A DNA stretch of 64,000 nt from Obrimoposthia wandeli (taxonomy: Eukaryota), in contig CDROCS010001043.1 of NCBI GenBank assembly GCA_977020255.1, forward strand, positions 868,001 through 932,000, given 5' to 3'. This document shows positions 36,761-63,108 of the stretch, in pieces (position 1 is the first letter of the stretch; each line of letters starts with the position of its first letter). The notes beneath the pieces were generated by a model. The model was not told where the DNA came from, ran no database searches, and saw only the letters and a program-made list of their open reading frames with translations. The position numbers and the translations under genes were made by a program.

Positions 36761-38790
36761 CGATTTGGATGAAGAGATGGAGGTACATATATATGGGGAT
36801 TTCTCTCCAGTACAGCAGCGAACGCCACCACCGGCACAGTACATTGACTTACTTAGTCAAGACTCGACGGTGGTGAGCAAAGGAGACGAAGGAGAAGCAG
36901 CAGCAAGAGCTGAGCTGTTGCTAGAAGAACCGCCATTGGCCAGCTCAACTCCGAGAGAAGAACCAAAGAGCGTGAGAGGTGGGTTACAGAGATCCCAATA
37001 TATCGACCTGACTAGTCAGGATTCGATTGAGAATTGGGAAGACTGTACTCCCAGGCTGAACACAGAAGCCAATCGTCCGGCAACTTCAGCATTAGCAGCA
37101 AGGAGATCCAATATCTTCCAGAATTTTGAGGCGGCAATCAAATGCCCCTGGAAATTGATCCCGCTTTCTCAGCCGGAGATAGTACTCGCACCAGACTCAG
37201 ACGAGGAGCTATTCACCGATGACGTTCCGTCGGATGGTGAGGAGGACTTGACTCCATTCATCGACGAATGGATACAGCCAAGTGTCGGAGCCCCAGTAGC
37301 CAACGATTCGATGGTGGCAGAATTGGATGAGGACGAGTGGCGCCTGTTCACTGACGATTGGGATGTAAATAAAGGCGATAAAGGCGACGAATGAGGTTAG
37401 ACATAATTTATTTTAAATGTTTTTTTATTTTCATTTTCAGAAACTTCAAATGGATTTGAGACCGTCAGTGACCACGATGGAGAGGCTGATTGAACCGCAG
37501 TACTTGGCGAGTCAATGTAGCCAGGATGATCCCAGGAGTGATCAGCAATACCTACCGACTCCGGCTAAATTGAGGTATATTATTATAAATTAGTTACTTA
37601 TTTTAATTATTCACATAGGAAGCCGAATTGGTAGAGGAAATTTGGGAGGAGGCAACTCTCAGACTACCCGTCGATAGGAAACAATGGGCGATTAAGAAAC
37701 CTCGACGCCATCGGGTCACAACTCACACTGTCCATCGAAAGAAGGCCAAGTTGGCGAATCAGGCTAACCTGCCCGTCATCGAGGTAAATTATTTATATTT
37801 TTAAATTTTATTTATGTTTTTGTTGCAGGAATCAATACAATTAACTGAGGAGACATGGGCAAAATTTCTCCTTTCCCACAGAAGCGAACGAGACAGGCTG
37901 CTGTACGGAAGATGAGGCGTCTTAGAAAGGCGAAATCTTGTCTGCTCAAATCGAGTGAAGTAACGATAGAGCGGCAAGAAAAACTTCCGTATAAGATTAT
38001 TGAGGTAAAATTTTAGATATTTAAATATTTTTTATATAAATGAATTTTATTTAAAATTTTATTAATGTTTTCTTTGCAGAAACACGCCCGGATAATTGAG
38101 GAGGCTTGGGGAGAAATTATTCCTTTTCCCAAGAAATGGACGAAGCGAGCAGAGGTGAAGAAGACGAGGCGCTCGAGAAAATGTAACACCTCAATTGGCC
38201 ATTATTCAGAGGCGGTGATTGGACGGCAGGAGATTCTCCCATCTCCAGTGGACGACGGTCCAATTTTATGCGAGAGGATCCCAGTCTCACCGATCGAGAT
38301 TAGTCCGCCATCAAGTCAACGACGCCTGCAGGAAACATCACCGGCTTCTCCTCGTCACACAACCAGCCAGAACTTAAAGAGGGCCTGGGATGAAGCTGGA
38401 TTGGACGAATTCCTGGCGGAACTGGATACACCGGCAATGCTACCAGATTCGCTAGGGAAACAGGATGCCGTCTCACGCCAACTTCAGCGTGAGAAGGAGG
38501 AGAAACAGAAGAAAGCTCCGCGGAAGAGGAAGGCTAATGCTTCTTTGTCAGGGCCATCAACATCGGCTGCATCTCCTCCCAAAAAGTTGCAGCAACTATT
38601 GCCAAAACCTTAGAGAAGGAAAATTGCTACAAAGCAACCGGTGAAGCTGAAAAAGAAACCGGGCCGGCCAAAGAAGAAGGAACCAGTACCGCTTTCTCCT
38701 ATAATACTTAGTCGGAGGGATTTCGACCCGGATGATCCCAATGATGACTTTGTAAAAAAAAAATATATATATATAATTTATAAACATTAG
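36761..38790 (+). pseudogene. Multi-exon disordered regulator-like gene X, copy A
   Basis: TATA box (tatataag) near 36700. Five exons separated by short GT-AG introns. Motifs YIDLLSQDS, YIDLTSQDS, PRKRK and KKPGRPKK. Frameshifts and a premature TAG at ~38610. Confidence 0.65.
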
Positions 38791-39069
38791 TTTCATATGT
38801 TTTATTGTTAGTATTTATTTAAATATCATCTTTAAGTTTATTAAAATATCAACATGAAAAAAATATTTAATTTATTCGCCAGTGATTGGATTAATAAGGA
38901 ATCATTGAAATTTTTAGGTTTAAATATAAATGCAATGATTAGTTATAGATTTATTAAACTTTCATTTGATACATAAAAATATATCATTTCATTGCTTGTG
39001 ATTGGATTAAAAATGTCTTAAATTTATATATATAGGTTCAAATTTATTAACCTCTTCATAATTTAAAAA

Positions 39070-39365
39070 ATGGAATTCATTAAATTGCAAAGCTTGGTAG
39101 CGAAGATAGAAGCAAACATCAGAATAAATGAGAAGAAAGGGGACTTAAGAAAGAGGATCCTCAATCAAAATTTGTATGCTGCTGTCGCGACCGAGTGGAA
39201 TCGCCGGGTGGAAATACAAGATAGGAGGCTAGCAGAACGACGTCGAATCGTGGAGTGGAATAAGAAGATCGAATTGGAAAAAAGGAAGGTGGATGAAAAA
39301 AGAAGAGAAGAGATGATGGATATTTGGAGGCAAGCAAGAAAAAGAATCCTCCAGTTTAAACCGGT
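39070..39365 (+). CDS. Small charged coiled-coil protein, copy A
   Basis: Frame conserved with 58760-59080; E/K/R-rich heptad-like pattern. Confidence 0.6.
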
Positions 39366-39770
39366 TAATTTTTTGATTAATTTTTGGTCTTTATTGATTA
39401 GGTTACATAATTGTTTAAATATTTTACATAAGCATACTAAATATAAACAATTTTATATATAATGTTTTTGTAAAATGGATAATAAAATTTGGAATAAATT
39501 ATACATAAAATTATCTCCAGATTTAATGGAAGATTATAAAAAAAATTAATTTTCAGAAAATTATACCGAGGAAATTGTTGGATATAAATTATGTAATTTA
39601 ATATCGAAATATTTAGGTATGTTTACATTTAATATAATTTATTTTAATATTCATAGGAGAATTGACAATATATACCAATCTTAACATGAAAGACTGAATA
39701 CTTTGTTATTTTAATAAATTTTTGATTTTTTCGTTATAAACAACGGGATTTGCTGCTAATTTAAATAATT

Positions 39771-40259
39771 ATGCAGGAATATATCATAGATTTTGAGGCT
39801 TTCATTAACAAAAATGGTGATTATATTATAAAAGAATTATGTATTATGGATGTATGCGACGTTTTTCATCTTTTGCATTTCATATTTCAAATAGATATCC
39901 CGTTTAAAAGTTTAGATTATAAGAAAAAATTTACTAATTTATATCTAACTAATTACTTTCATTTATTAAAATGGAAAGAAGGACATAAGGCTTTTTGTGA
40001 AATATGTATTTTCGATACAATAACATCTAATTTTGATATAGAAAATGGATTTTTTTATGTTTTAGATGAAATGGATGGCAAAAAATATAAGACTTTAAAA
40101 AAATATTTTCCCAAATTGAGGTTGAATACTTTAAATATTTCACGTGATCATCTAATAAAAATTCCACGAAATATTGGCTGTCCATATCGTAAACATGGTG
40201 ACCATTGCGCATATAAAAAATGTTTAAGTCTTTTTTATTATTACTTGACATGTAGATAA
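39771..40259 (+). CDS. Small DEDD/DnaQ-like nuclease-fold protein with C-terminal C/H cluster, copy A
   Basis: IIDFEAF..KELC motif and CPY..HGDHC. Intact 162-aa ORF, also intact in copy B. Confidence 0.65.
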   Translation: MQEYIIDFEAFINKNGDYIIKELCIMDVCDVFHLLHFIFQIDIPFKSLDYKKKFTNLYLTNYFHLLKWKEGHKAFCEICIFDTITSNFDIENGFFYVLDEMDGKKYKTLKKYFPKLRLNTLNISRDHLIKIPRNIGCPYRKHGDHCAYKKCLSLFYYYLTCR

Positions 40260-40489
40260 ACAATTCTTCTAATTGGAGAAATTCATTATTAAAATTTTAC
40301 AACTAATTACAAATAAGCCTTTTGATTGGAGGAATACAAATATTTTTTTTAACCAATAACAGATAAACAATCCTTCTCAGTGGACGGATAAATTCAATTT
40401 TTTAATCCAATAGGAAAAGAGCATGTGTGCATAAATTTTAGTATCTAAGCAAACACTTTCTTCATTTAAATCCCCGACAATTTGAAATA

Positions 40490-43400
40490 ATGACTATGGT
40501 AAGAATGTATATTTATTATTTCCTTATTAATATTTATTATTTCAGATTACTTGTATCCTGTTTCCAGCATATTGTGGTGCTTCGGCTCCGCATGGAGGAG
40601 AAACCTGCAGGGAGATAATGTCCGCCTACTATCGGACAAAGTCTCGCGGGATTCACTTCTTCGTCTGCCCCTTCTGCAGAACAATGGAGGAGAAGGAGTT
40701 TCGAGACTTCTTCGGTGAACATAGAGCTCATCTATCGTGTTTCACGGCCAACAACAAGAAGAGGGATATCGTGCAATTGGTGCACGATTCGCAGGCCGCT
40801 CCAGCTCCTGCTCCAATTCCAGTTGCAGTCGATCAACCCTTTTACGGTCCTGCCATTGGTCCTTCTGTCCCGGCTCCTGATTCTGCTGCTGCCCCATCCA
40901 TCAAATGACTAACAATGAGTGGATGAACGACATATCCGAAGAAGATTTTGAGGAGTTGGTACCAGCAACCCAATTCTCGAACAATGACTGGATGGAAAAT
41001 ATCACCCAGTCAGATTTCGAGATAGAGCAGCCTCAGTGGAGCGATAACTCCTGGTTGGAGACCATCGAGGAATCCGATTTCGTCGAGATAATGGACAACA
41101 GCTGGATGGATTCCATAAATGAAGAGGACTTCATTCCAGCTCTAGTTGGATTGCCTTCATTAGGTATTTTTTATTATTATTTTTTAAAATTGTAATTATA
41201 AATATTATTGTAATTATATATATTTTATTTTTTATTCAGGAAATACCGTGATACAATCGTCATCCGCTACGACAGCTATGCCTCCCCCATCGCGAGTGCC
41301 TACATCGATGTTAGCACGTCTTAAGGTAATAATTTTTAAAAATATATTTATTTCAGCAGCATCAGACTCTACAACAGCCGCTTCTTCATCGGCAAGGTCA
41401 GCTTCTACCACACCTACTCCAACTTCAAATGCAGCCTCTACAACTGCCACTGTCTCATCATCTGCGGCAGCATCTATCACGGCAGCATCGTCTACACCAG
41501 CTGCAATTGCCTCAACATCGGCAGCATCACCAATAGCAGCACCTTCAATCTCAGCTGCGTTTGTGTCAACTGTTAATATAAATAGTTGTCTTCCCGTTCA
41601 ATTAGAGGGAGGTTTGTCAGCGACTGTAGGAAGAAAGAGGCGAGGCCAATTTCTTAATAAGGTCCCACCAAAAAAACGTAGAGAAAACGGTGCTACTATA
41701 GAGTATCACCTAAATAATAAATATGTTATAGTTAAGGTGCCATTAGGAAATGAAATTTTATTAAACGTAGGTGTAGATTCAAATATTGAAAATCTTTTAA
41801 AATCAGAAGTGACTAAATTAGGACAGGCTAAGGTTCAATTTTGTGCAACAGTGCAGTTTAAAAATGTCAATGAGGCATCTAAAACTTGGGTATTTTCACA
41901 TAAACTAACTGTTTTCTATGATAATTTTGTAACTGAAATTGGAAGAAACCTAGATGAAAAAATTGCTAATTATAGTGAGTTAAGTAGTGGATGGAATCTA
42001 GTTAGAATTCAGGATGTTAGCTTTGTTCTAACAAAGTTCACTGACATGATATATCTTTCGGGGAGTTCATACATTCCTTCACCTAGATCTCTTCAACTTT
42101 CACGTTCCATTGTTAACATACAAAACAGTGATAACCTTTGCTTTCTGTATAGCGTGTTGGCCATCCTCAAAAAATCACTGAACATAGAGAGCGTGTCAGT
42201 AAATATACCCCTTTTTTAAATGAATTGCAGTATCATGGAATAGATTTTCCTGTTAAATTTACTGCGATATCAAGATTTAACATCTTAATAACTTGAGTAT
42301 TAATGTATTCAAATATAATACTGATATCCCAGTTAATGTAACAGATGAAGAAATTTTTAAAAATCCTTTTGTATATATGTAATTTATAGGAGCAAATATG
42401 AGAGGACTCAGGTCAACTTAATTTTGCTCGAACATAATAATAAATTCCATTATGCTGCAATTCCCAGTTTAGATCGTCTTCTAAATTTAAATAATGGAGC
42501 CTTACCGGTTAGGATAAGGTGTAAGTGGTGTCATAGATGTTTGCATGGATTCCGATCCGAGCTCTCTTACAGCAAACATCTGACATTATGTTCACTGAAT
42601 ATTGATGACAATACGCTATATAGCATGCCTAAGGATAAGGATTTAAAATTTTTGGATTGGGCAAAATGCATACCCGTGGAATTCAGGGTGTATGCAGATT
42701 TTGAGTCAATTTTAGCATTGCACGACCAGTATGAGAATATTCACCTACCGGCTTCGGCAGGACTACTATTCTTAGGCCCCAATATTACACAGTATCATAA
42801 ATTTTCCGGTCCAAATTGTATTTTAGATTTTATGTTAAAATTAGAAGAATTAGGAACAACAATTGTCAAACCGTGGTATGATCTCAATGCTCATCAAGCA
42901 ATGATCATGACAGGCATAGACTGGGTTAATTTTAAAACTTGTAGATTATGTTATTTATAGGGAACCCAGTCTAACTTACTCAGAGATCACGATCATGTTA
43001 CGGGGCGATACTTTGGAGCGGCGTGCAACCTCTGTAACCTTGGACGTCGTCTCCCTAAAAAAAACACGAACTCCCATCGTGTTTCATAACCTCAAAGGAT
43101 ATGATTTGCATCATATACTTAAATATGTGTTGGGTACATTAAGCTCTTGGGAAATTTCATGTACACCTCAAACTTCAGAGAAATATTTATCTTTAACTGC
43201 ATATACTGAATTCTGCAGTTTAAGATTCATAGATTCTCTGCAGTTTTTGAGCCAGTCTTTAAAAAATTTAACGGCATCTTTAAATGCATGGCCAATCACA
43301 CAGTCAGTGTTCCCAGCTTCGGTTAATGATAAGGGGATTTTTCCGTATAAATTTGCGAAAACCTTTGCAGATTTAGAAAATACTACAGAAATCCCACCCA

Positions 43401-44987
43401 TAACTGAATTTGAAAGTGTAAGTCTGGGTTAAGACTATAATGAGGCCCGTACATTTTGGGCGAATAATTGTCGAAATCTTCTTGAATATATGCTTTATTA
43501 TATGAAATTAAACATTTATCTTTTAGCTGATGTTTTTGAGTCCTTTCGTGTAAAGTCTTTAGCAGAAGATGGGCTAGATCCCATGCATTTCTTTAATTTA
43601 CATGGTCTTTCATGGGCAACAGCAATAAAAACTCTTAAAATTAATATCGAGTTACTGCAAGATCCCGTGATGTATCAAATGTATGATTATGGTATACGCG
43701 GTGGAATGACTTTTGTCAACAAACATCATGTTGTCAAAAAACAATCCACGGAGATTCTGTACATCGACATTAATAATTTGCATGGGTGGGCGCTTACTCA
43801 ACCTCTATCTCATGCCAACTTTAAGTGGGTTTATGATGAGAAAGAGTTGAATAAATTGATTTCAGATTTGGCTACTGTTGATACAGTTTCATCAAACGTC
43901 GGCTATTTGGTTGAGATTGACTTAAAAATCCCTCCCAATGTGCATGATAAATTAGATGATCTTCCAGGAGCACCTGTTCATCAATGTCCACCTAATTTAA
44001 AGGTTAAGAAATTATTGTTAACCTATGAAGATAAGTTGAATTATGTTGTGCATTGGCAGCTTCTTCAATTCTACTTAAAGTTGGGAGCGAAAGTTACTCG
44101 AATTCATCGTGCTATAAGCTTCAGTCAAAACTTTGTGTTTAAAGACTATATTGAGAAGAATTCAAGAAAACGTAATTTGGCCACTAGCAAATTCGATCGA
44201 GATTTTTACAAGTTAAAAAGTAATAGCTTCTTTGTAATAAAACTGTAGAGGACTTGCGGAAATGTATTTGTCTACGGTTCTGCAATGATGAGCGTAAACT
44301 AATAACATATACTAGCAAGTACAACTTCAAGCGTAGTTTTACAATTGCAGATGACTTGGTAGCAGTGTTATTAGGAAATTGAGTATTTGTCTCGATCGAC
44401 CGAGTTATATAGGTCAAACGGTTTTAGACATTTCTAAACTCAGAATGTACGAGCTTCAATACATAGAATTGGAGAAATATCGACGAGAATTCAATTGTGA
44501 GATCAAAATCGCAGCTGGGGACACTGACTCTTTCTTTTTAGAATGTAAAAATGTTAGTTTAAATAATCAATTATTACCGGCAATGTTTAATGACAACTTA
44601 TTAGATACCCATAAATATCACGCTAACCATCCTCTACACTCTATGAGGTTAAAGGATATTATCGGGAAATTTAAGGATGAAAGCGAGGGACAGGTTTCGT
44701 ATGATGATTGTATTTTCCTACGCCCTAAATGCTACAGTTTACATGCATCTAATAATACATGTTCAATGAGAGCAAAGGGTGTGGGAAGAAACAATCTTAC
44801 ACATGAGGCATACCGGAGAGTTTATGATACTGGGTGTATTGAAAGCGTTGAGCAAACTAGAATTATTTCAAGAGCCCATCAACTGTATTCCCATAAATCA
44901 ACCAAAATCGCTTTGAGTAGTAATGACGACAAGCGCTTTTGGGTAAAAAAGAACGCTAGCCTGGCTTATGGACACTTCCGAATTTAA
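40490..44987 (+). pseudogene. Protein-primed DNA polymerase B, copy A, spliced and multiply disrupted
   Basis: Motifs YADFES, FHNLKGYD, YIDINNL(H)G and AGDTDSFF. Introns at 40499-40545, 41164-41239 and 41326-41356. About eight stops or frameshifts relative to copy B. Confidence 0.93.
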
Positions 44988-47107: not shown

Positions 47108-47607
47108 ATGAAACTCGTAAATATAAATTATAAAGGTAGAACAGAAGATGATGTTTCATACTTACCATTCAATGAATGGAAGCCTAGACAATATGTAGAA
47201 AAGTTTGACAATTTCACAGTTGTTATTTTTCCTACAGGTTAGTTTTTTATTTTATTTTCATATTGAATTCTTTAGGAAATTGTCGTGTTATGGGATGCAA
47301 AATACCAATGCTTGGGTTCAATTTACCATTTGGAATTCAAATCACTGCAATACAATCAATCACGATTTCGGTTAATCTCGGGAAACAGATACATCTTTTT
47401 AAAACTGCAGAGAAAATGAAAGAAGAATGCATGTTTGAACCAGGAAATTTTCCTGCTCTCAGTTATTTGAAGTTTAAACCGCTATGTGTAAATATATTTT
47501 CCAGTGGTAAAGTTATGATATTGGGATTGAAAAATTTTGATTATCCAGACATAGTTGATTTGATTTTAGAATATATATCTTATTACATCTTGTTATCTTT
47601 TCTATAA
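47108..47607 (+). CDS. TATA-binding protein (TBP)-like protein, 2 exons (47108-47237, 47276-47607), 153 aa
   Basis: Two TBP-like repeats: LVNINY..TVVIFPTGNCRVMGCK and IQSITIS..FEPGNFPALSY..VNIFSSGKVMILGLK. These compare with LQNIV..TALIFSSGKMVCTGAK and IQNMVGS..YEPELFPGLIY..LLIFVSGKVVLTGAK of TBP. The 38-nt GT-AG intron restores the frame. Confidence 0.78.
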
Positions 47608-47635
47608 ACAAACCTGTTTAAACTTATTGTTTCAA

Positions 47636-47945: not shown

Positions 47946-48593
47946 ATGGAGCTAAATAATAATGCTGTATTGCAAATAGTTGGCACTAGTGGAAGTGGAA
48001 AGACACATTTCGTCTGTAAATTGTTGCAAAATGAATCTCTTTTCAAATCTAGTTTCAAAAATATTTATTGGCATCATGGTGGAGGAGGGGAAAGCGGGTT
48101 AACCAAAACAGAAGTTTGCAAGTTGAAGGGTATAAAATTTATTGAAGGATTTGATGCAAATTGGTGTGAAAGATTGAAAAAAGAAGATGTAATAATAATT
48201 GATGATTTGCATGAGGAGGCTAACAAGGAATCGGACTTTAATAATTTATTTACAAAGATTGCAAGACATCGTGAAGTAACAGTTATATTTATCACTCAAA
48301 ATCTGTTTCACCAAGGAGGTCATCATAGAACAAGAAATCTTAATGTACATTACTTAGTTTTATTTAAAAATCCTAGAGATCAAACAGTTGTTGATTTTGT
48401 GGCCAGACAGGCATTTCCTCAAAATAAGAACTTTCTAGTTGATTCATTCCACGATGCTGCTAAACAAGCACATGGGTATATATTTATTGACTTTACACAA
48501 GCTTGCCCAGATGATTTACGTGTTTTAACAGACATATTTAATTCTAAGGGAGTAACTGTTTATAAACAAATAGAGAACAATTATAAAAAATAA
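47946..48593 (+). CDS. Genome-packaging ATPase (A32/FtsK-HerA family)
   Basis: Walker A GTSGSGKT, Walker B IIIDD and ARH..IFITQNLF motif; intact. Confidence 0.93.
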   Translation: MELNNNAVLQIVGTSGSGKTHFVCKLLQNESLFKSSFKNIYWHHGGGGESGLTKTEVCKLKGIKFIEGFDANWCERLKKEDVIIIDDLHEEANKESDFNNLFTKIARHREVTVIFITQNLFHQGGHHRTRNLNVHYLVLFKNPRDQTVVDFVARQAFPQNKNFLVDSFHDAAKQAHGYIFIDFTQACPDDLRVLTDIFNSKGVTVYKQIENNYKK

Positions 48594-49096: not shown

Positions 49097-49182
49097 ACAA
49101 TTATTTATAAAATCAGCTAAAGATATGGGTGCTAGCCCTTCTTTACTTAAACTTAAATTTTCTTTCTATTCAAATTGTTGTA

Positions 49183-50215
49183 ATGGAGAAGATATGGTTC
49201 AATCCAAAAGATCCAATTGGCTACACAGGAGTTTCAAAATTAGCAAAAAGAACAAAACAAAATTACAAGAAAACGCAGAAATGGCTGAGCGACCAGTTAG
49301 CCTACATTCTGAACAAGCCGATGAGAAGAAGGTTTCCAACTAGAGCTTACAAAACCAGCGGTCCTAATAATTTATGGCAAATGGATTTGATGGAGATGAT
49401 TCCATATTCTTCCATTAATAAGGGATATCGATATCTTTTAACATGTATTGATGTATTTAGCAGGTTTGCTCGTGCAATTCCAGTTAAATCAAAGTCTTCA
49501 ATAGCTATGCTTGATGCCATTAAAGAAATATTAAAAGAGGACATTCCACAAAATGTGCAAACTGATTTAGGAAAAAAAATTTATAATAAGCAAGTTCAAT
49601 CATTATTTAAACAAAATAATATAAATCATTACTCTGTGTTTTCACAGTATAAAGCAGCAGTAGTAGAAAGATTTAATCGTACTCTAAGAGATCGAATAAA
49701 AAAGTATTTCACAAAAGAGGGAAATAAAAAATGGATCCAAGTTTTACCTAAAATAATACATGCATATAAACACTTTGAACATAGAGGTCTCAAGGGAATG
49801 AGACCTGTTGATGTTACTAATAAAAATTCTATGGATATTTGGATGAACAGGAATAAAAAAGAAAATATTAAAAAAGCTAAATATAAGAAAAACTAATATG
49901 TCCGAATTTCGAAAATTAGCTCTACTCAATTTATTAAAAACTTTGATCAGAATTGGAGCGATGAAATATTTTGTATAAGTAAAATTGATCAAAAGAGTAA
50001 TCCAATAATGTATACTATTAAAGATGCTGACAATAATATCGTTCACGGTAAATTTTACGAGCAAGAACTACAAGTAATATCAAATAAACCTAGCGTTTTC
50101 CGAATTCAAAAAATATTAAAATCTAAGGGTACAGGTAAACATAAACAATACTTTGTTAAATGGCATGGTTATTCAGACCCAACTTGGATATCAGCATCTA
50201 ATATAATATCAAGTC
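49183..50215 (+). pseudogene. Retroviral-type (rve) integrase with C-terminal chromodomain; frameshift at ~49893
   Basis: WQMDL, IDVFSRF, QTDLGK and VVERFNRTL (DDE triad). Downstream frame YVRISK..NWSDEIF..YFVKWHGY..TWI. Confidence 0.92.
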
Positions 50216-50216
50216 T

Positions 50217-51240
50217 ATGTATATGGTTTTACCAAGTAACGGATGTCCGAAGACTCAACCAGATAATGACGCTAGTAGCTTTATTATCGATTGGGAAAAT
50301 TCTATAAATCTCCAAGGAGAATGGGAAGCGGCTTTAACAGAATTTTCTTTTTATTATTCTCCAATTACTATCAAAAAAAACTCACATATTTCGTTTACAA
50401 AAGAAATGAATTATGAAAAACAAATAATATTGTATCGGGTTTGATAGTAAAGGAAAATTCTATCACAATTGTATAGATAAAGAAGTGAAAGTAATATTTG
50501 AAAATAACAAATTCAGATTTAAAAATCGATTAAAATTTCTTCAAGTTATTAAAATTAATTTTGAATCTAAAAAGAAGCTCTTCAATTCAGTTTTGATAGT
50601 GAACAAACAGTAGCTCGTAATAAACGGGATATTATCTCATCTAATTCGGTTAGAAATGTTCCTGGTAGAGTAGCAAAAGTGTTGTTACTTGAAACGAGAC
50701 CAAAGACTGTAGTGGAACTGAAAACGTTTTTAAAAGATTATAAAATAGATAGTGAAGTGAATTTCTGTAAATTAATACAGAAAGACTGTAGTGAATATTT
50801 AGATAAATGTGAAACATTAAATGGTAAATTAACGTTTACAGTAAAGAGCAATATAAAACGAGTTTCATTTGATGATAAACTCGCTAAAAACCTTGGTTTA
50901 ATCTGAAATACCTTTGAAACCCATACAATAAAAACCATAAAAGCTAAAAATAAGGCAAAACTTTTAAATGCTGTTAATCATTTATATATTTATACTAATT
51001 TAATAGAACCAACGCTTGTAGGAGGACAGCGAGTTCCACTTTTGAGAACAATATGGATATCTAAAAATGAAACTAGAGATGGGGACGCGGTCGGTATGTG
51101 GATAGATCAACCAATGTATCTTCCAGTTTCTCTCTTTTCTATAAACAATATTGAAGTTAATATTAGAGATGATTCCGGATAACTAATAGATTTCACGTAC
51201 GGGGCCAAGACAAGTTTAACAATACATTTAAGAAAACAAA
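50217..51240 (+). pseudogene. Minor capsid protein (penton), frameshifted
   Basis: N-terminus YMVLPSN..INLQGEWEAALTEF. C-terminus LYIYTNLIEP..VG..VPLLR..MYLPV..INNIEVNIRDD. Confidence 0.8.
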
Positions 51241-51618
51241 ATGGCGAATCCAGCAATAATTGAAGCTTATAGTCAAAGCCAACAAGGTGGAGAATTACCA
51301 TATTTTGTTGGTAAACAATACGGATCTGGCTGGCTTAGAACATTAGTTAGATTTGCCTTTCCTCTTTTAAAGAGACTCGGGCGATTTATATCAAAATTAG
51401 GAAAGGATTACCTTTCATCTAAGGACAACAAACTAATACCAACTTTTAAGAAGCATGCGCTTGATGAACTTGATAATGTTTTACCTGAAGTTGCTAATTT
51501 GATTAGAAAACGTAAATCAAATAAAAGTCAAGGAGGTAGTGGATTTAAAAGTAAAAAGAAGCTAAAAATTAATATAAACAAACGTAAGAATGTTGAAGGA
51601 ACAATATTTGCAAAATGA
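51241..51618 (+). CDS. Small structural protein with QxGG/QxGxG motifs and amphipathic helix
   Basis: QQGG..QYGSGWLRTLVRFAFPLLK followed by a basic C-terminus; lies between penton and MCP. Confidence 0.65.
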   Translation: MANPAIIEAYSQSQQGGELPYFVGKQYGSGWLRTLVRFAFPLLKRLGRFISKLGKDYLSSKDNKLIPTFKKHALDELDNVLPEVANLIRKRKSNKSQGGSGFKSKKKLKININKRKNVEGTIFAK

Positions 51619-52844
51619 GTTGCGCCAAAACTGAATTGTGTATTTTTGATAAACCGCTTCCACAAGTAGTTGTAGATAATGCTTCCTTTGAAGAAATATT
51701 CCTAGTTAACTCAGTTTCAGGAACCACTTTAACCGATTTAGATTTTAATATTAATGGTTCCAATAGTGAGTATTTAGATTTCAATGATACTTTGCTTTAT
51801 GTTCAAATAAATATATTAAATCGGGATGGTACTAATTTAGATGAAAATGCCGATGTAACACTTGTAAATTATCTCTTTAATTCTTTATTTAATGATGCCA
51901 TTGTTACTCTTAATAATGTCAAAATTGAAGGTGGAAATTCTTCCTATGCTCATAAAGCTTTGATTGAAAGTCTTTTGAATTATAGTACTGATACTCAAAA
52001 TACTAATTTGGCAACCATTGGTTATGATAAAACTGTTGCAACTCGCAAAGAATGGATTGCAGGTTCTAAAGCTTACGAAATGTGTGGGTCTTTGAGATTG
52101 AATTTCTTTGAACAACCGAAATATTTAATTCCCGGTGTTAATGTACATCTTCGTTTGAAACGTAATAAATGGATTTTTTCTTTGATAAGCACGGACATTC
52201 TAAAACCTAGACTTGATATTTTGGATGCAAAATTGTATGTTCGAAGAGTTAAAACCGAGCAGTCAGTTTTAATGGCACATAATATAGGAATGGAAAAAAA
52301 CAATGCTTGTTATCCTATTAGAGAAACTAAACTTATATCTTATTCTTTAGGTACGGGTACACAAGCTTTTAATAAGGATCAAATTTTTGGTGATGTAAGA
52401 TTACCGAAATTCATTTTAATTTTTTTTTTTAAAACTGCAAAGTTTCTAGGAAATTATACGACAGATGCAACTCAATTTGACAATCTTAGTGTAGGTTCAG
52501 TGACACTTTCAAGAAATACTGATTATCGCGAAACATATAAAACAGATTTCGAAGGTAACACTTATGCTTTGGCTTATACGCAATCTATTATTCGGAATTT
52601 GGGCCAACTAGATAAAAATATAAACAATGGTATTTCTTTCACTGAGTTTAAAAGCAGCTGCCCGTTCTTCACATTCGTTTTGGCACCAGACTTTGATATA
52701 AACCAATGCCAACTACCAAAGGATGGAATTTTACGACTAGAAATTAAGTTCAATGCAGCTTTAACACATCCTACTACGGTGCTTATGTACGGAGTATTTG
52801 ATTCGGAAATACAAATCAATAAAAACAGAACTGTCATATTATAG
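51615..52844 (+). CDS. Double jelly-roll major capsid protein
   Basis: Intact 409-aa ORF with KTELCIF..PQ, YLDFNDTLLYV, YLIPGVNVHLRL and LEIKF..AL..VLMYG motifs of Polinton MCPs. Confidence 0.9.
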   Translation: MSCAKTELCIFDKPLPQVVVDNASFEEIFLVNSVSGTTLTDLDFNINGSNSEYLDFNDTLLYVQINILNRDGTNLDENADVTLVNYLFNSLFNDAIVTLNNVKIEGGNSSYAHKALIESLLNYSTDTQNTNLATIGYDKTVATRKEWIAGSKAYEMCGSLRLNFFEQPKYLIPGVNVHLRLKRNKWIFSLISTDILKPRLDILDAKLYVRRVKTEQSVLMAHNIGMEKNNACYPIRETKLISYSLGTGTQAFNKDQIFGDVRLPKFILIFFFKTAKFLGNYTTDATQFDNLSVGSVTLSRNTDYRETYKTDFEGNTYALAYTQSIIRNLGQLDKNINNGISFTEFKSSCPFFTFVLAPDFDINQCQLPKDGILRLEIKFNAALTHPTTVLMYGVFDSEIQINKNRTVIL

Positions 52845-52845
52845 A

Positions 52846-53225
52846 ATGGAGTAAGACATATTTTAAATTAATATTTATTAATTTTATTTAGTTCAGTTCA
52901 AGTAAAAGAATCAGCAGAGAAGGTCCTGGGTGATAAATTCAATGGAGTTTATCCTATTGATATGATTCCATTTTTTCAATCTGGAGGTTACATTATCAAT
53001 ACTCATACTTCGAATTTACCAGGAGAACATTGGATAGCTATTTATGTTAGAGAGTGGACATTACATGTATTTGATCCACTTGCAATGTATTATCCACACA
53101 AACTTGTTTCAACTATTCAAAAAGGACGAAGAAGAGTATTTTACAACAAGATACAATATCAGGATCCTGCGACGAGAAACTGTGGACATTTATGTATTTT
53201 ATGGTTATCGTTGCAAAACAATTAG
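52846..53225 (+). CDS. Adenain-like cysteine protease, 2 exons (52846-52850, 52892-53225)
   Basis: Catalytic-type motifs GEHW, FDP, YQ and NCG. ATG GA|gtaaga..atttag|T TCA with a 41-nt intron gives MDSVQV..FNGVYPID. Confidence 0.88.
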
Positions 53226-53501: not shown

Positions 53502-56500
53502 TTAAATTCTGAAGTGTCTATAAGCCAGGCTAGCATTCTTTTCTACCCAAAAGCGCTTGTCGTCATTACTACTCAAAGCGATTTTGGTTGATTTATGGGA
53601 ATACAGTTGATGGGCTCTTGAAATAAATCTAGTTTGCTCAACGCTTTCAATACACCCAGTATCATAAACTTTCCGGTATGCCTCATGTGTAAGATTGTTT
53701 CTTCCCACACCCTTTGCTCTCATTGAACATGTATTATTAGATGCATGTAAACTGTAGCATTTAGGGCGTAGGAAAATACAATCATCATACGAAACCTGTC
53801 CCTCGCTTTCATCCTTAAATTTCCCGATAATATCCTTTAACCTCATAGAGTGTAGAGGATGGTTAGCGGGATATTTATGGGTATCTAGTAAGTTGTCCCT
53901 AAACATTGCTGGTAATAGATGATTATTTAAACTAACATTCCTACATTCTAAAAAGAAAGAGTCAGTGTCCCCAGCTGCGATTTTAATCTCACAATTAAAT
54001 TCTTGTCGGTATTTCTCCAATTCTATGTATTGAAGCTCATACATTCTGAGTTTAGAAATGTCTAAAACCGTTTGACCTATATAACTCGGTCGATCGAGAC
54101 AAATACTCTGTTTTCCTAATAACACTGCTACCAAGTCATCTGCAATTGTAAAACTACGCTTGAAGTTGTACTTGCTAGTATATGTTATTAGTTTACGCTC
54201 ATCATTGCAAAACCGTAGACAAATACGTTTCCGCAAGTCCTCTACAGTTTTTCCAAAGAGACTATTACTTTTTAACTTGTAAAAATCTCGATCGAATTTG
54301 CTAGTGGCCAAATTACGTTTTCTTGAATTCTTCTCAATATAGTCTTTAAACACAAAGTTTTGACTGAAGCTTATAGCACGATGAATTCGAGTAACTTTCG
54401 CTCCCAACTTTAAGTAAAATTGAAGAAGCCGCCAATGCACAACCTAATTCAACTTATCTTCATGGGTTAACAATAATTTCTTAACCTTTGAATTAGGTGG
54501 GCATTGATGAACAGGCGCTACTGGAAGATCATCTAATTTATCATGCACATTGGGAGGGACTTTTATGTCCACCTCAACCAAATAGCCGACGTCGGATGAA
54601 ATTGTATCAACAGTAGCCAAATCTGTCATCAACTTATTCAACTGATCCACATCATAAACCCACTTAAAGTTGGCATGAGGTAGAGGTTGAGTAAGCGCCC
54701 ACCCATACAAATTATTAATATCGATGTACAGAATCTCCGTGGATTGATTTTTGACAACATGATGTTTGTTGACAAAAGTCATTCCACCGCGTATACCATA
54801 ATCATACATTTGATACATCGCGGGATCTTGCAGTAACTCGATATTAATTTTAAGAGTTTTTATTGCTGTTGCCCATGAAAGACCAGGTAAACTAAAGAAA
54901 TGCATGGGATCTAGCCCATCTTCTACTAAGGATTTTACACGAAAGGACTCAAAAACATCAGCTAAAAGATAAATGTCTAACTTCATATAATAAAGCATAT
55001 ATTCAAGAAGATTTCGACAATTATTCGCCCAAAATGTACGGGCCTCATTATAGTCTTGAAGACTTACACCCTCAAATTCAGTTATGGGTGGGATTTCTGT
55101 AGTATTTTCTAAATCTGCAAAGGTTTTCGCAAATTTATACGGAAAAATCCCCTATCGTTAACCGAAGCTGGGAACACTGACTGTGTGATTGGCCATGCAT
55201 TTAAAGATGCCGTTAAATTTTTTAAAGAACCACTCAAAAACTGCAGAGAATCTATGAATCTTAAACTGCAGAATTCAGTATATGCAGTATATGCAGTTAA
55301 AGATAAATATTTCTCTGAAGTTTGAGGTATACATGAAATTTCCCAAGAGCTTAATGTACCCAACGCGTATTTAAGTATATGATGCAAATCATATCCTTTG
55401 AGGTTATGAAACACGATGGGAATGCGTAGTTTTTTAGGGAGACGACGGCCAAGGTTACAGAGGTTGCACGCCGCTCCCAAGTATCGCCCCGTAACATGAT
55501 CGTGATCTCTGACTAACTTAGACTGGGTTCCACACAAATAACATAATTTACAAGAATTAAAATTAACCCAGTCTATGCCTGTCATGATCATTGCTTGATG
55601 AGCATTGAGATCATACCACAGTTTGACAATTGTTGTTCCTAATTCCTCTAATTTTAACATAAAATCTAAAATACAATTTGGACCGGAAAATTTATGATAC
55701 TGGGTAATATTGGGGCCTAAGAATAGTAGTCCTGCCGAAGCCGGTAGGTGAATACTCTCATACTGGTCGTGCAATGCTAAAATTGACTCAAAATCTGCAT
55801 ACACCCTGAATTCCACGGGTATGCATTTTGCCCAATCCCTGAATTTTAAATCCTTATCCTTAGGCATGCTATATAGCGTATTGTCATCAGGATTCAGTGA
55901 ACATAATGTCAGATGTTTGCTGTAAGAGAGCTCGGATCGGAATCCATGCAAACATCTATGACACCACTTACACCTTATCCTAACCGGTAAGGCTCCATTA
56001 TCTAAATTTAGAAGACGATCTAAACTGGGAATTGCAGCATAATGGAATTTATTATTATGTTCGAGCAAAATTAAGTTGACCTGAGTCCTCTCATATTTGC
56101 TCCTATAAATTACATACACAAAAGGATTTTTAAAAATTTCTTCATCTGTTACATTAACTGGGATATCAGTATTATATTTGAATACATTAATACTCAAGTT
56201 ATTAAGATGTTCAAATCTTGATATCGCAGTAAATTTAACAGGAAAATCTATTCCATGATACTGCAATTCATTTAAAAAATGGGTATATTTACTGACACGC
56301 TCTCTATGTTCAGTGATTACACCCCTTTTGAGGATGGCCAACACGCTATACAGAAAGCAAAGGTTATCACTGTTTTGTATGTTAACAATGGAACGTGAAA
56401 GTTGAAGAGATCTAGGTGAAGGAATGTATGAACTCCCCGAAAGATATATCATGTCAGTGAACTTTGTTAGAACAAAGCTAACATCCTGAATTCTAACTAG

Positions 56501-57948
56501 AGTCCATTCACTACTTAACTCGCTATAATTAGCAATTTTTTCATCCAGGTTTCTTCCAATTTCAGTTACAAAATTATCATAAAAAACAGTTGCTTTATGT
56601 GAAATTTCCCAAGTTTTAGATGCCTCATTGACATTTTTAAACTGCACTGTTGCGCAAAATTGAACCTTAGCCTGTTCTAATTTAGTCACTTCGGATTTTA
56701 AAAGATTTTCAATATTTGAATCTACACCTACGTTTAATAAAATTTCATTTCCTAATGGCACCTTAACTATAACATATTTATTATTTAGGTAATACTCTAT
56801 AGTAGCACCGTTTTCTCTACGTTTTTTTGGTGGGACCTTATTAAGAAATTGGCCTCGCCTCTTTCTTCCGTTTGTCGCTGACAAACTTCCCCCTAATTGA
56901 ACGGGAAGACAACTAGTTATATTAATCGCAGCTGAGGTTGAAGGTGCTGCTATTGGTGATGCTGCCGATGTTGAGGCAATTGCAGCTGATGTGGAAGCTG
57001 CTGCTATTGTTGATGCTGCCGATGTTGAGGCAACCGTAGCTGATGTTGAAGGGGCTACTGTAGCAGGTGCTGCTGATGTTGATGAGACAGTGGCAGTTGT
57101 TGAGGCTGCATTTGAAGCTGACTTGCCGATGAAGAAGCGGTTGTTGTAGAGGTTAGTGCTGCTGAAATATATTAAAAAATAAATATATTTTTAAAAATTA
57201 TTACCTCTAAGGCGTGCTAACATCGATGTAGGCACTCGCTATGGTGGAGGCATATCTATTGTAGCAGATGACGATTGTAGAACGGTATTTCCTGAATAAA
57301 AAATATAAATAAAATATATATATTAAAAAATAAAATATCTAATTTAAAAATAATAATAAAAAATACCTAATGAAGGCAATCCAAGTTGTGCTGGAATGAA
57401 GTCCTCTTCATTGACGAAATCCATCCAGCTGTCGTCCGACATCTCGACGAAATCGGATTCCTCGATGGTCTCCAACCATGAGTTATCGCTCCACTGCTCT
57501 ATCTCGAAATCTGACTGGGATATGTCATTCATCCACTCATTGTTAGACATTTGAGTGGATGGGTCAGAATCAGGAGCCTGGAGACCAATCGCAGGACCGT
57601 AAAAGGGTTGATCGACTGCAACTGGAATTGGAGGTGGAGCGACCTGCGAATCGCGCACCAATTGCATGATATCCCTCTTCTTGTTGTTGGCCGTGAAACA
57701 CGATAGATGAGCTCGATGTTCACTGAAGAAGTCTCGAAACTCCTTCTCCTCCATTGTTCTGCAGAAGGGGCAGACAAAGAAGTGAAGCCCGCGAGACTTT
57801 GTCCGGTAGTATGCAGACATTGTCTCCATGCAGGTCTCTCCTCCATGTGGAGCCGAAGCACCACAATACGCAGGGAATAGGTTACAAGTAATCTAAAATA
57901 ATAAATATTAATAAGGAAATAATAAAAATAAATTCTTACCATAGGCAT
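53502..57948 (-). pseudogene. Protein-primed DNA polymerase B, copy B; 4 exons (57948-57940, 57892-57367, 57291-57205, 57161-53502), about four lesions
   Basis: vOTU-like DNLCF..INVF..HY; Zn/HNH-like CYLC..RDHDH..ACNLCN; Exo YADFES and FHNLKGYD; Pol YIDINNLYG, KLKSNSLFGK and GDTDS. -1 frameshifts at ~57130 and ~55150; TAG at 54444 and one in exon 3. Confidence 0.95.
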
Positions 57949-58148
57949 TATTTCAAATTGTCGGGGATTTAAATGAAGAAAGTGTTTGCTTATATACTAA
58001 AATTAATGCACACATGCTCTTTTCCTATTGGATTAAAAAATTGAGAAGGTTTGTTTATCTGTTAAATGGTCGAAAAAAATATTTTTTTATTCCTCCAATC
58101 AAAAGATTTAATTGTAATTGAATGAAAATTATGAATTAGAAGAATTTT

Positions 58149-58637: not shown

Positions 58638-58759
58638 AATTATCTAAATTTGCAGCAAATCCCGTTGTTTATAACGAAGTACTTTCATGTTAAGATTGGT
58701 ATATTTTGTCAATTCTCCTATGTAACATAATCAATAAAGACAAAATAATAATCAAAAAT

Positions 58760-59080
58760 TTATTTTTTTGTGGAAGGACCCTCTTCCGGTTTAATCTGGA
58801 GGATTCTCTTTCTTGCTGCTCGCCGAACATCCTCCATCTTTTCTCTTATTTTTTCATTCACCTTCCTTTTTTCCAATTCGATCTTCTTATTCCACTCCAC
58901 GATTCGATGGCGTTCTGCTAGCCTCCTATCCTGTATCTCCACCCGATGATTCCACTCTGTCGCGACAGCAGTATACAAATTCTGGTTGAGGACTCTCTTT
59001 CTTAAGTCCCCTTTCTTCTCATTTATTCTGATGTTTGCTTCAATCTTCGTCACCAGACTCTTCATTTTAATGAATTCCAT
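58760..59080 (-). CDS. Small charged coiled-coil protein, copy B
   Basis: Intact; homolog of 39070. Confidence 0.6.
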   Translation of the reverse strand: MEFIKMKSLVTKIEANIRINEKKGDLRKRVLNQNLYTAVATEWNHRVEIQDRRLAERHRIVEWNKKIELEKRKVNEKIREKMEDVRRAARKRILQIKPEEGPSTKK

Positions 59081-59299
59081 TTTTTTTAATTATGAAGAGG
59101 TTAATAAATTTGAACCTATATATATAAATTTAAGATATTTTTTAATCCAATTAAATGATATATTTTTATTTATCAAATGAGTGTTTAATAAATCTATAAC
59201 TTATCATTGCAAATAAACTTAAAGATAGTGTTTCTACATTTAAAAAAATAAATATTAAGAAGAAAACATATGAAACTAATTTTTATAAATTATATTTTT

Positions 59300-61090
59300 A
59301 AACATCTTTACGAAGTCATCATTGGGATCATTCGGGTCGTAATCCCTCCGACTAAGTATTATAGGAGAAAGCGGTACTGGTTCCTTCTTCTTTGGCCGGC
59401 CCAGTTTCTTTTACGGCTTCACCGGTTGCTTTGTAGCAATTGTCCTTCCCTCAGGTTTTGGCAATAGTTGCCGCAACTTTTTGGGAGGAGGTGCAGCCGA
59501 TGTTGATGGCCCTGTCATAGAAGTCCTCTTCCTCTTCCGCGGAGCTTTCTTCTGTTTCTCCTCCTTCTCACGTTGAAGCTGGCGTGAGACGGCATCCGGT
59601 TGCCCATGCGAATCTGGAAGCATTGCCGGTGAATCCAGTTCCGCCAGGAATTCATCCAATCCAGCTTCATCCCAGGCCCTCTTCAAGTTCTGGCTGGTTG
59701 TTGGATGAGGAGAAGCAGTCTCCTGCAGGCGTCGTTGACTTGATTGCGCACTTATCTCGATCGGCAAGACTGGGATCCTCTCATATAGGATTGGTCCGTC
59801 GTCCACTGGAGATTTGAGAATCTCCTGCTGGCCAATCACCGCCTCAGAATAATGGTCAATTGAGGTGTTACATTTTCTAGAGCGCCTCGTCTTTTTCACC
59901 TCTGCTCTCTTCGTCCGTTTCCGCGAGAAAGGAGTAATTTCTCCCCAAGTCTCCTCAAATATCTGGACGGGTTCCTGCAAAATATTAATAAAATTTAAAC
60001 ATATAAATAATTTACCTCAATGATGGGCAGGTTAGCCTGTTTCACCAACTTGGCCTTCTTCCGAGTGAGGGTTTTGACCCTATGGCGTTGCGGTTTCTTC
60101 ACTGCCGCTTGCTTCCTATCCACCGGTTGAATAGACGTCGCCTCTTCGTGAATGTTCTCCATCTATGTGAATTATTAAATTTAATATCTAAATAATTTAC
60201 CTTAAAATTATCTGGAGACGCTAGGTATCGGAGCTGACTCCTTGGCAGCTCCTGGCTGCATTGACTCGCCAAGTACTGCGGTTCAATTAGCCTCTCCACC
60301 ATGGTCACTGACGGTGCCAAATCCAGTTGAAGTTTCTGAAAATGAAATTAAAAAACATTTAAAATAAATGATGTCTAACCTCATTCATTGCTTTTATTCT
60401 CCTAACAGGAGATTTCGGCCTTTTGAATGGTTTAGGCATTGTATTATCTGATTTCGGAGTAGCAGAGGGAGTGAGACCATCCCAATCGACGGTAAACAGG
60501 TGCCACTCGTCCTCGTCCAATTCTGCTACCATCGACTCGTTGGCTTCAGGGGCTCCGATACTTGGCTGTATCCATTCGTCGATGAATGGAGTCAAGTCCT
60601 CCTCCCAATCCGAAGGTACATCATCGGTGAACAGCTCCTCGTCTGAGTCTGGTGCGAGGACTTTCTCCGGTTGAGACAGCGGGATCAATTTCCAGGGGCA
60701 TTTGATTGCTGCCTCAAAATTGTCGAAGAGATTGGATCTCCCTGCTGCTACATCTGAAGTTGGCGGACGATTGGGTTTTGTGTTTTGTCTGGGAGTACAG
60801 TCTTCCCAATTCTCTATCGAATCCTGACTAGTCAGATCGATATATTGGGATCTCTGTACCCCACCTCTCACGTCCACTGGTTCTTCTCTTGGAGTTGAGC
60901 TGGCCAATGAGGCTTCTTCTTGTAACAGGTTCGCTCTTGCTGCTGCTTCTCCTTCGCTCACCACCGATGACTCTTGACTATCTAAGTCAATGTATTGCGA
61001 CGGTGGTGGCGTTCGCTGCTGCACTGGAGAGAGATCCCCATAGAGTTGAACCTCCGTCTCTTCGTCTAGGTCAACGTTGTTGTCAGCATT
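59300..61090 (-). pseudogene. Multi-exon regulator-like gene X, copy B (introns 60379-60336, 60200-60163, 60015-59975)
   Basis: Three phase-0 introns of 44, 38 and 41 nt join the exons into one frame. The start region looks damaged and TAA at 59411 precedes the AT-hook-like motif. Confidence 0.7.
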
Positions 61091-61348
61091 GTTGATTTAT
61101 GAAAAATAATGAACGGAGGTGTCTTTATATACACAAACATCTTAATAACCCTCTTTTATTGTCCAATGAGAGCCTCTTATTCAAATAATTTATTTTTTGT
61201 AATGTTTTTTCGTGCCTGTAGATGCCCATCGTTGTTATTTTCGTGAGAATAGAGCCCGCCCCGAAGGGGCAGGTGGTGGTCGGTTGGGTGTTTCCATCCA
61301 ACACCCGTCGACTTTCACTCATCACCCGAGGTAGTTAGTGATATACAC

Positions 61349-61578
61349 GAGAGCGAGACATTCGTACATCGCCAAGCTAGTCTGTGACCTATTTGAGAGC
61401 GAGACATCCGTACATCGCCAAGCTAGTCTGTGACCTATATGAGAGCGAGACATCCGTACATCGTCAAGCTAGTCTGTGACCTATATGAGAGCGAGACATC
61501 CGTACATCGCCAAGCTAGTCTGTGACCTATATGAGAGCGAGACATCCGTACATCGCAGAGCTAGTCTGTGACATATAT
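61349..61578 (+). repeat. Five tandem copies of a 46-bp unit in the subterminal region of B
   Basis: gagagcgagacatccgtacatcgccaagctagtctgtgacctatat; units start at 61349, 61395, 61441, 61487 and 61533. Confidence 0.95.
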
Positions 61579-61593
61579 CAGTCCCGAGCCCTT

Positions 61594-61733
61594 CCTTGTC
61601 CTTTAAAACCGTGCATGTGTGTGGAGTGAAATTTCACTCCACACACCTACACGAAATTTCACTCCACACACATGCACGGTTTTAAAGGACAAGGGGGGAG
61701 GGGTGTGGATTAGACCGGACACATCCACATACT
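61594..61733. repeat. Right terminus of B with internal 41-bp inverted repeat and 30-bp palindrome
   Basis: 61594-61634 is the reverse complement of 61654-61694; 61617-61646 is a perfect palindrome; 61654-61733 matches the left end of A. Confidence 0.9.
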
Positions 61734-62267
61734 ATACCCATGTGCTTGTTTACCAGCATCGTGGAATGAATCAACTAAAAAGTTCTTATTTTGAGGAAAT
61801 GCCTGTCTGGCCACAAAATCAACAACTGTTTGATCTCTAGGATTTTTAAATAAAACTAAGTAATGCACATTAAGATTTCTAGTTCTATGGTGACCTCCAT
61901 GGTGAAAAAGATTTTGAGTGATAAATATAACTGTTACTTCACAATGTCTTGCAATCTTCGTAAATAAATTATTAAAGTCTGATTCCTTGTTAGCTTCCTG
62001 ATACAAATCATCAATTATTATTACATCTTCTTTTTTCAATCTTTCACACTAATTTGCATCAGATCCTTCAATAAATTGTATTCCCTTCAACTTGCAAACT
62101 TCTGTTTTGGTTAATCCGCTTTCCCCTCCTCCACCATGAGGCCAATAAATATTTTTGAAACTAAATTTGAAAAGAGATTTATTTTGCAACAATTTACATA
62201 CGAAATGTGTCTTTCCACTTCCACTGGGACCAACTATTTGAAATACAGAATTATTATTTAGCTCCAT
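61734..62267 (-). pseudogene. Packaging ATPase of copy C, frameshifted and truncated by the B terminus
   Basis: GPSGSGKT and IIIDD. Homology to the intact ATPase ends abruptly at ..CAT GGG TAT|AGTATGTGG. Confidence 0.9.
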
Positions 62268-62607
62268 TGCATATACTCTTTCATTTTTTTAATATTGTTT
62301 ATATTATCATAGAAGTTTCCTTATTGAAATGTACAATGGTAGAGCTATTGTAGATTAAATACAAAAATTAATTAATGAATATTTGGCTATAATTTTATTT
62401 ATTTGTATACGATTTCTAAATTCTCGAATAACGTGTGATCTAACCAATATTTCAATGTTATCTCTTGTTATATCATTATTTTTTAATTCTGATAAAATTT
62501 CTTTACTCCTAATTTTTCCAGAAAATATTTCGTCGGCAAGCCGATCCACTTCATTGTCTCTATTTATAGTATTATTCATTTGAAACAATAAGTTTAAACG
62601 GGTTTGT

Positions 62608-63108
62608 TTATAGAAAAGATAACAAGATGTAATAAGATATATTTTCTAAAATCAAATCAACAATGTCTGGATAATCAAAATTTTTCAATTCCAATATCAT
62701 AACTTTATCACTGGAAAATATATTTACACATAGCGGTTTAAACTTCAAATAACTGAGAGCAGGACAATTTCCTGGTTCAAACATGCATTCTTCTTTCATT
62801 TTATCTGCAGTTTTAAAAAGATTTATCTGTTTCCCAAGATTAGCCGAAATCGTGATTGATTGTATTGCAGTGATTTGAATTCCAAATGGTAAATTGAACC
62901 CAAGTATTGGTATTTTGCATCCCATAACACGACAATTTCCTAAAAGAATTCAATATGAAAATAAAATAAAAAACTAACCTGTAGGAAAAATAACAACTGT
63001 GAAATTGTCAAACTTTTCTACATATTGTCTAGGCTTCCATTCATTGAATGGTAAGTATGAAACATCATCTTCTGTTCTACCTTTATAATTTATATTTACG
63101 AGTTTCAT
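62608..63108 (-). CDS. TBP-like gene, copy C (intron 62978-62940)
   Basis: Same intron position as in B (39 nt here). Substitutions in conserved motifs (FPAL to CPAL, SSGK to SSDK, LGLK to LELK) suggest decay. Confidence 0.7.

Follow-up and report, generated by a model that had tools for sequence, protein, structure and literature searches.

The genes of Polintons, also called Mavericks, are usually described as intronless. Vertebrate Mavericks have eight conserved intronless open reading frames (ORFs), and no introns are reported in their intact elements (Barreat and Katzourakis 2021, PMC8097293). Nematode Mavericks, according to the accessible text of a preprint, have intronless core genes and carry introns only in host-derived cargo (Widen et al., bioRxiv 10.1101/2022.07.12.499685). 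Here we analyzed a stretch of 64,000 nucleotides (nt) of a 1.35-Gb animal assembly (G000:C1043:868001-932000, hereafter the window), in which a Polinton family, named B/C after two of its copies, carries short GT-AG introns in gene X, pPolB, a TBP-like gene and the protease. A reading of the window without database searches (the original prediction) had listed introns in these four genes, and all of them were found there. Its statement that Polinton genes are usually annotated as single-exon ORFs agrees with the first of the two studies above and, for core genes, with the second.

The B/C element resembles vertebrate Mavericks in its pPolB, integrase, ATPase, protease, putative capsid module and probable terminal repeats, but four of its genes are split, two of them core genes. 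The 2006 work of Kapitonov and Jurka is also said to agree that Polinton ORFs are intronless. With nematode Mavericks the element shares the condition of an animal Polinton with intron-bearing genes; unlike there, the protease and pPolB themselves are split. Spliceosomal introns are known within Maverick-Polinton-like proviruses of dinoflagellates, where mobile introner families were mostly inserted after integration (PMC11957031, available part); in contrast, the introns of the B/C family are mutually unrelated and inherited at fixed positions across families. Group I introns were described in some protist Polinton-like viruses (PMC12220804, available part). Adintoviruses have the same gene complement as the B/C family, and the legend of one figure, within a section on datasets from non-animal eukaryotes, names a TBP-like gene (Starrett et al. 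2021, PMC8502044), but the main text of that paper, in the form available, contains neither "splic" nor "exon".

Adenoviruses are a nuclear virus relative with spliced start-codon exons, and the start exon of human adenovirus pol and pTP has 3 codons. Their mRNAs for polymerase and terminal protein (E2B and late transcription units) arise by splicing from short 5' exons (PMC11304566, available part). There the splices are long, alternative and made from shared leaders, whereas those of the B/C family would be minimal, local to each gene and, to the extent tested, constitutive. The original prediction had called the dependence on host nuclear splicing adenovirus-like. The probable dependence itself is well supported by intronless homologues and conservation across families; the adenovirus comparison serves as an analogy and implies no homology of introns.

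Spliceosomal introns in Polinton genes are not described in the available portions of PMC8502044, PMC10748475, PMC11296320, PMC6431247, PMC11244446 and four preprints, and a survey of 7,103 assemblies, flatworm Polintons included, states in its available text that introns were ignored. In a search that left aside subscription papers, Repbase reports and supplements, we found no publication that describes spliceosomal introns as an inherited feature of core genes in animal Polintons. Against the published picture of intronless core genes, the present structure is surprising.

Probable introns at fixed positions in Polinton genes

Comparison of many copies and families indicates that the introns of the B/C family are very probably functional U2-type spliceosomal introns belonging to an inherited gene structure, and not damage acquired after insertion. 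Copy C carries eight of them, three in gene X, three in the 5' leader of pPolB and one each in the TBP-like gene and the protease; copy B has an additional fourth intron in gene X and one further candidate, which the original prediction did not contain. They have a GT donor, a T-rich tract and a YAG acceptor, and their AT content is 82-95% as against 51-68% in the coding stretches measured. When they are removed, the TBP-like gene and the protease become collinear with uninterrupted homologues at the exact codon, and pPolB does so at the level of domains. The protease intron is the most widespread; those at the 5' end of pPolB and in the TBP-like gene occur in several families, while pPolB introns 2 and 3 and the gene X introns were seen only in the B/C family.

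The protease intron lies directly after ATG plus 2 nt in five families of the host genome (C, A, E, G and H). Outside this genome, 13 metagenome loci with a protease were available, of which 10 were examined at the start (two have no upstream DNA and one is a weak match); the intron is present in four (L131, L135, L137 and L138, two of them near-identical) and absent in six. In all eight lineages, namely the five families and three distinct metagenome lineages, the intron keeps its position, phase 2, GT and AG, with a length of 38-48 nt, while its interior is at chance level (identity 0.68, against 0.66 for shuffles). Splice sites kept while the interior drifts were what the original prediction had proposed to look for across copies. 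The protease intron gives this pattern; the young B/C family is uninformative in this respect, since the intron interiors of copies B and C are about as similar as their exons, so that counts of GT and AG within the family reflect the inheritance of young copies and mostly not selection. In family A the acceptor is retained in 17 of 19 parsed copies (20 in all), and three introns are 31-nt variants. Two close relatives, L132 and L133, have an uninterrupted protease start that is collinear with the spliced product; the remaining four intronless loci are distant. Without splicing the frame meets a stop after two codons in 8/8 lineages, which is not evidence of regulation because any phase-2 donor of this type yields it, and exon 2 lacks a Met ahead of the catalytic His in 4 of 7 lineages. 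On the comparison of these lineages, the protease intron is older than the split of the five families and the outside lineages. In trees, the close relatives all fall into one clade (100/100) whose base is poorly split; a single clade of intron-bearing lineages was neither recovered nor rejected (p-AU 0.21), and the trees are thus compatible both with a single gain and with gain followed by loss. A search for protease homologues gave one match, which begins 9 residues into exon 2 and is suggestive only. The related metagenome element L137 also carries a dual-specificity phosphatase gene (L137:675-1260; PF00782, E=4.5e-21) with a short intron inside; this contig may be chimeric, because its first 450 bases look bacterial.

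The intron of the TBP-like gene was GT-AG, 38 nt long and in phase 1 in 25/25 genomic copies, and in the same 25 the unspliced frame is closed by codon 44. An uninterrupted TBP-like gene, with an identity of about 50%, is found in families A, A' and E of the host genome. It has no additional bases where the junction lies, and the two exons of copy C align along it, separated by a single split codon. Families F, G and H do have an intron at this codon, with differing interiors; one G copy has a degraded donor, and a microsatellite lengthens the intron of H. The encoded protein is compact, with two repeats and 144-155 amino acids (aa) in several families, and its best matches of solved structure are archaeal TBPs at low identity. 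Among proteins of at least 197 residues, a search with exon 2 found no longer homologue. Two canonical host TBPs were inspected and rejected as a source of this intron, both being uninterrupted at the relevant codon. A Pfam TBP search of the genome returned 19,768 first-look candidates; of 20 lower-scoring loci examined (L088-L107), all but one could be aligned with the Polinton TBP-like gene. In families A and E the gene stands head to head with pPolB (L058:5250-5310, L061, L122), and an intron-like segment of the opposite strand begins directly behind the TBP-like start codon; from this placement, the pPolB transcript of these families may begin inside the TBP-like gene.

For pPolB, the best 30 of 41 genomic matches were compared, copy C included. 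The three introns are GT-AG in 30/30 copies and in phases 0, 1 and 1 in 29/30; in 24/30 neither exon 2 nor exon 3 contains a stop in the frame handed over, and without splicing the frame ends at codon 96-149 in all 30. Intron 3 measures 43 nt in 29 copies and 47 nt in one, and 46 nt in another B-like copy. The minimum of 31 nt given by the original prediction is present in copy B, as a deletion variant of intron 3 seen in this copy only (43-47 nt elsewhere). Exon 2 encodes a Cys/His domain. In families A, E and G this domain and the polymerase share a single ORF, and the two are likewise fused in outside proteins (e.g. P0001, P0003, P0006, P0016, P0023, P0036 and P0037; one of the four rows of the profile used on outside proteins was in the wrong frame). 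Because domain and polymerase form one ORF elsewhere, the leader exons appear to supply the natural N-terminus. In family G a candidate intron also lies directly behind the pPolB start codon; in families A and E an intron-like segment is found just upstream of it. L132, the relative with an intronless protease mentioned above, has on its minus strand (1800-3300) a stand-alone gene that begins with a pPolB-type Cys/His domain and contains about four short introns.

Gene X introns are GT-AG in 17/17, 16/18 and 18/19 aligned C-type copies (21 rows); among complete copies, phase 0 holds for all of them in 16 of 20 of the B-type and 11 of 16 of the C-type, and the internal exons are multiples of three in 16/16 complete C-type copies. 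The fourth intron of the B-type derives from a duplicated exon plus intron. Judged by length sums, the spliced product would have about 560-640 residues. No Pfam match was found for the copy C exons, no Atlas match for exon 1 of copy B, and no homologue outside the B/C family. The predicted protein is acidic, Ser/Pro-rich and basic, with two IDL[LT] motifs, which we take to recall SUMO-binding nuclear regulators, as a lead only.

The original prediction had also held that the introns are far shorter than most introns of the host Ena gene (109 nt to 10 kb). As a contrast with the host this is misleading: spliced alignment of seven host myosin stretches gave 52 introns, many at positions common to paralogues (a few may be misplaced), of which 27 are 80 nt or shorter, with a median of 48 nt, a minimum of 36 nt and a mean AT content of 71%. 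Given this median, the Polinton introns fit the short, AT-rich end of the host's minimal class, and the comparison with that class, which had been proposed at the same time, gave a match in size.

By gene content the B/C element is a Polinton, and in gene structure it is a new variant. PF03175 was matched on three ORF pieces of pPolB, the protein-primed family B polymerase, which has 123 homologues with identity up to 60%; the retroviral-like (rve) integrase gave PF00665 (E=3.6e-13) with chromodomain PF00385, and the A32-like packaging ATPase PF04665 (E=3e-7). The adenovirus-like cysteine protease was recognized by a His motif conserved across families and by its place after the capsid gene, its Peptidase_C5 match (E=0.032) being below the cut-off. 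A conserved 409-aa ORF stands where the major capsid protein, of double jelly-roll type in Polintons, is expected. Scans of viral contigs gave 0 loci for the capsid protein, 1 weak locus for pPolB and 5 distant loci for the protease. Integrase, ATPase, putative major capsid gene and the catalytic core of the polymerase are unsplit, and their alignments to other families contain no intron-sized gaps. The description "intron-rich across core genes" was thus overstated, although the protease and the 5' end of pPolB are indeed split and the intronless state usual for core ORFs is not found in this family.

Alternative explanations and the proposed role of splicing

Several observations weigh against functional introns. 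The intron interiors of copies B and C are not clearly more diverged than the flanking exons (identity 0.51-0.97 against 0.60-0.98), and the comparison with other families or intronless homologues at the exact junction covers the protease and TBP-like introns, the junctions of gene X and of pPolB introns 2 and 3 being predicted. Lesions are present in most copies, including B and C: pPolB exon 4 is open for at least 300 codons in only 6/30 copies, and a gene X frame without a break from the first to the last exon was seen in just 1 of 20 B-type and 4 of 16 C-type copies. The claim that removal of the introns restores the frames in B and C, separately noted point lesions apart, holds for the TBP-like gene of copy C, which is open, but gene X and pPolB are still broken by lesions in these copies, and their continuity was seen in other genomic copies. 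The Polinton introns are more AT-rich than the host's short introns (82-95% against a mean of 71%). Finally, the argument for splicing is one of sequence comparison.

It may be that the protease and TBP-like introns are real and that the models of the pPolB leader and gene X are partly wrong, the 87-nt pPolB exon being skipped or the upstream exons forming a separate gene. The 87-nt exon lies between two phase-1 introns, so the frame survives skipping; L132 has the Cys/His domain in a stand-alone gene with several introns, and gene X is without a homologue outside the B/C family. We consider this quite unlikely, as the same domain is fused to pPolB in three other families of the host genome and in outside proteins, and the internal exons of gene X keep to multiples of three in every complete C-type copy.

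A second possibility is that introners were recently inserted in the host, as in the dinoflagellate viruses, where about 25% of viral elements contain them (PMC11957031, available part), and the intronless TBP-like genes do have an AG|GT-type site at the insertion point. The ten window introns tested, however, do not form a sequence family: 4/45 pairs exceeded z>2, one pair (pPolB introns 2 and 3) reached z=4, and the longest end-inverted match was 7 nt. The age of the protease intron, which predates the split of the five families and the outside lineages, also makes a recent insertion very improbable.

Scarcely credible is the view that the genes were disabled by AT-rich insertions or by expansions of low complexity, copied passively and with GT and AG by coincidence: the segments are of low complexity and as AT-rich as the element's intergenic DNA (75-85%), and most copies are decayed, but GT and AG pair by chance in only 27 of 20,970 windows of 38-47 nt (0.13%) of the element's non-coding DNA, the positions recur in outside contigs and between families whose proteins are about 50% identical, and a family whose protease, TBP-like gene and polymerase start had been inactivated would hardly spread as many copies 98-99% identical.

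If the segments are functional introns of an inherited gene structure, the Polinton would be transcribed in the host nucleus by the host's RNA polymerase II (Pol II), and splicing by intron definition would remove its minimal introns (38-48 nt, a few about 75 nt). Splicing would then be required for the protease and the gene X product, for a TBP-like protein with both repeats, and for pPolB in full length, including the Cys/His domain at its N-terminus. The element's RNAs are probably spliced, and the introns were probably gained stepwise. We suggest only tentatively, and regard as unlikely, that the post-ATG protease intron acts as a gate which an invertebrate Polinton clade kept while spreading between hosts. 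Since the unspliced RNA encodes two codons, capsid maturation and with it particle formation would be on only when and where the host splices; the clade also has a compact TBP-like protein of its own, whose full length would depend on splicing in some families.

Polinton annotation relies on ORF finders, which in the B/C clade truncate the protease and the polymerase and halve the TBP-like gene; an element that is complete may then be taken for a defective one. That families and outside samples share an intron at a fixed place in a core virion gene is evidence, read directly from the sequence, for expression through the host nucleus and spliceosome; virophages, in contrast, use the giant-virus factory. 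As the intron-present and intron-absent states adjoin in one genome, the family offers a compact system for the study of intron gain and loss. The predicted splicing is testable on existing kinds of data, since planarian Polintons are transcribed once piRNA silencing is lifted (PMC8532177, available part).

The window and its Polinton copies

Three nested Polinton copies, B (on the plus strand), C and D, lie in the window (Table 1). One terminus each was found for copies B and C; their facing ends coincide with a run of N at 45180-45636. The B/C family is young and abundant: 40/40 scored candidates, drawn from 3,170 first-look candidates that are not to be read as copy numbers, match at 98-100%.

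Table 1. Polinton copies, genes and introns located in the window
Feature	Position	Strand	Remarks
Copy B	35816 to N run	+	Polinton copy
Copy B, left terminus	35816..35897	+	terminal repeat common with copy C end; 95% match to 61733-61654; terminal motif
Copy C	about 45637-61733		end interrupts ATPase of copy D
Copy C, terminus	61654..61733	-	inserted in copy D ATPase gene
Copy D			Polinton; ATPase gene broken by inserted end of copy C
Family-A relic	4600-6216		older, another family
Protease, copy C (adenovirus-type)	52846..53225	+	start exon with 5 coding nt, then exon 2; Peptidase_C5 weak
Protease intron, copy C	52851..52891	+	41 nt, phase 2; common to clade
Protease start, family-A relic	5383..5417	+	same intron position; acceptor lost in relic copy
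TBP-like gene, copy C	47108..47607	+	2 exons; PF00352, E=6e-11; collinear with intronless families
TBP-like intron, copy C	47238..47275	+	38 nt, phase 1
TBP-like intron, copy D	62940..62978	-	39 nt
pPolB, copy B	40490..44987	+	3-codon start exon, Cys/His-domain exon, 86-nt exon, then linker and polymerase; many lesions
pPolB intron 1, copy B	40499..40545	+	47 nt, phase 0
pPolB intron 2, copy B	41164..41239	+	76 nt
pPolB intron 3, copy B	41326..41356	+	31 nt; shortened variant of 43-47-nt intron
pPolB, copy C	53502..57948	-	introns 57939-57893, 57366-57292, 57204-57162; lesions; PF03175
Gene X, copy B	36741..38790	+	5 exons; one exon and intron duplicated relative to copy C; frameshifts and stops
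Gene X intron 1, copy B	37396..37440	+	45 nt; phase 0 in most copies; GT-AG in 23/25 B-type copies
Gene X intron 2, copy B	37575..37618	+	44 nt; GT-AG in 25/25 B-type copies
Gene X intron 3, copy B	37784..37828	+	45 nt; GT-AG in 24/24 aligned, 1/25 B-type unaligned
Gene X intron 4, copy B	38005..38079	+	75 nt; B-type subfamily only; GT-AG in 25/25
Gene X, copy C	59276..61089	-	4 exons; introns 60379-60336, 60200-60163, 60015-59975; exon 1 frameshift, last-exon stop
Extra candidate intron, copy B	39617..39656	+	40 nt; small B-type ORF starting near 39475; upstream part absent from C-type copies
A32-like packaging ATPase	47946..48593	+	intronless; PF04665; one segment against other families
Integrase with chromodomain	49111..50307	+	intronless; lesion breaks frame; PF00665, PF00385
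Putative major capsid protein	51615..52844	+	intronless; 52-57% identity over full length to same gene in other families and metagenome contigs; no Pfam match

Nesting is common in this genome; Polinton copies often lie inside or beside others, including those of other families, and most fetched stretches contain mixed families (loci L051-L066, L114-L129). On the same contig, at G000:C1043:1019360-1048892, four B-type gene X copies follow each other at a spacing of about 9.6 kb, all 96% identical to B, and represent either a tandem array or an assembly duplication. Within the end of copy C, positions 61326-61694 of the window hold a 46-nt tandem repeat and an inverted duplication of terminal sequence. 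A conserved ORF of 150-164 aa without a Pfam match (58149-58643, minus strand; 39765-40259 and 5773-6216, plus strand) occurs in most families and in outside contigs; the acidic motif near its start presumably recalls DEDD nucleases.

A host Ena/VASP-like gene occupies positions 353-29700 of the window, with a WH1/EVH1 exon at 7785-7970 and transposon relics in its introns, and the Polintons lie directly downstream of it. The host is most likely a flatworm, and its myosins look flatworm-like to us. A multi-copy COX1 of mitochondrial type in the assembly has AAA at conserved Asn, ATA at Ile and TGA at Trp, that is, the flatworm/echinoderm code. The assembly also contains many uninterrupted COX1 genes of bacterial look, and one locus (L112, G000:C5352) carries a mitochondrial COX1 from another animal, whose codons follow the general invertebrate pattern and which probably stems from prey or contamination.

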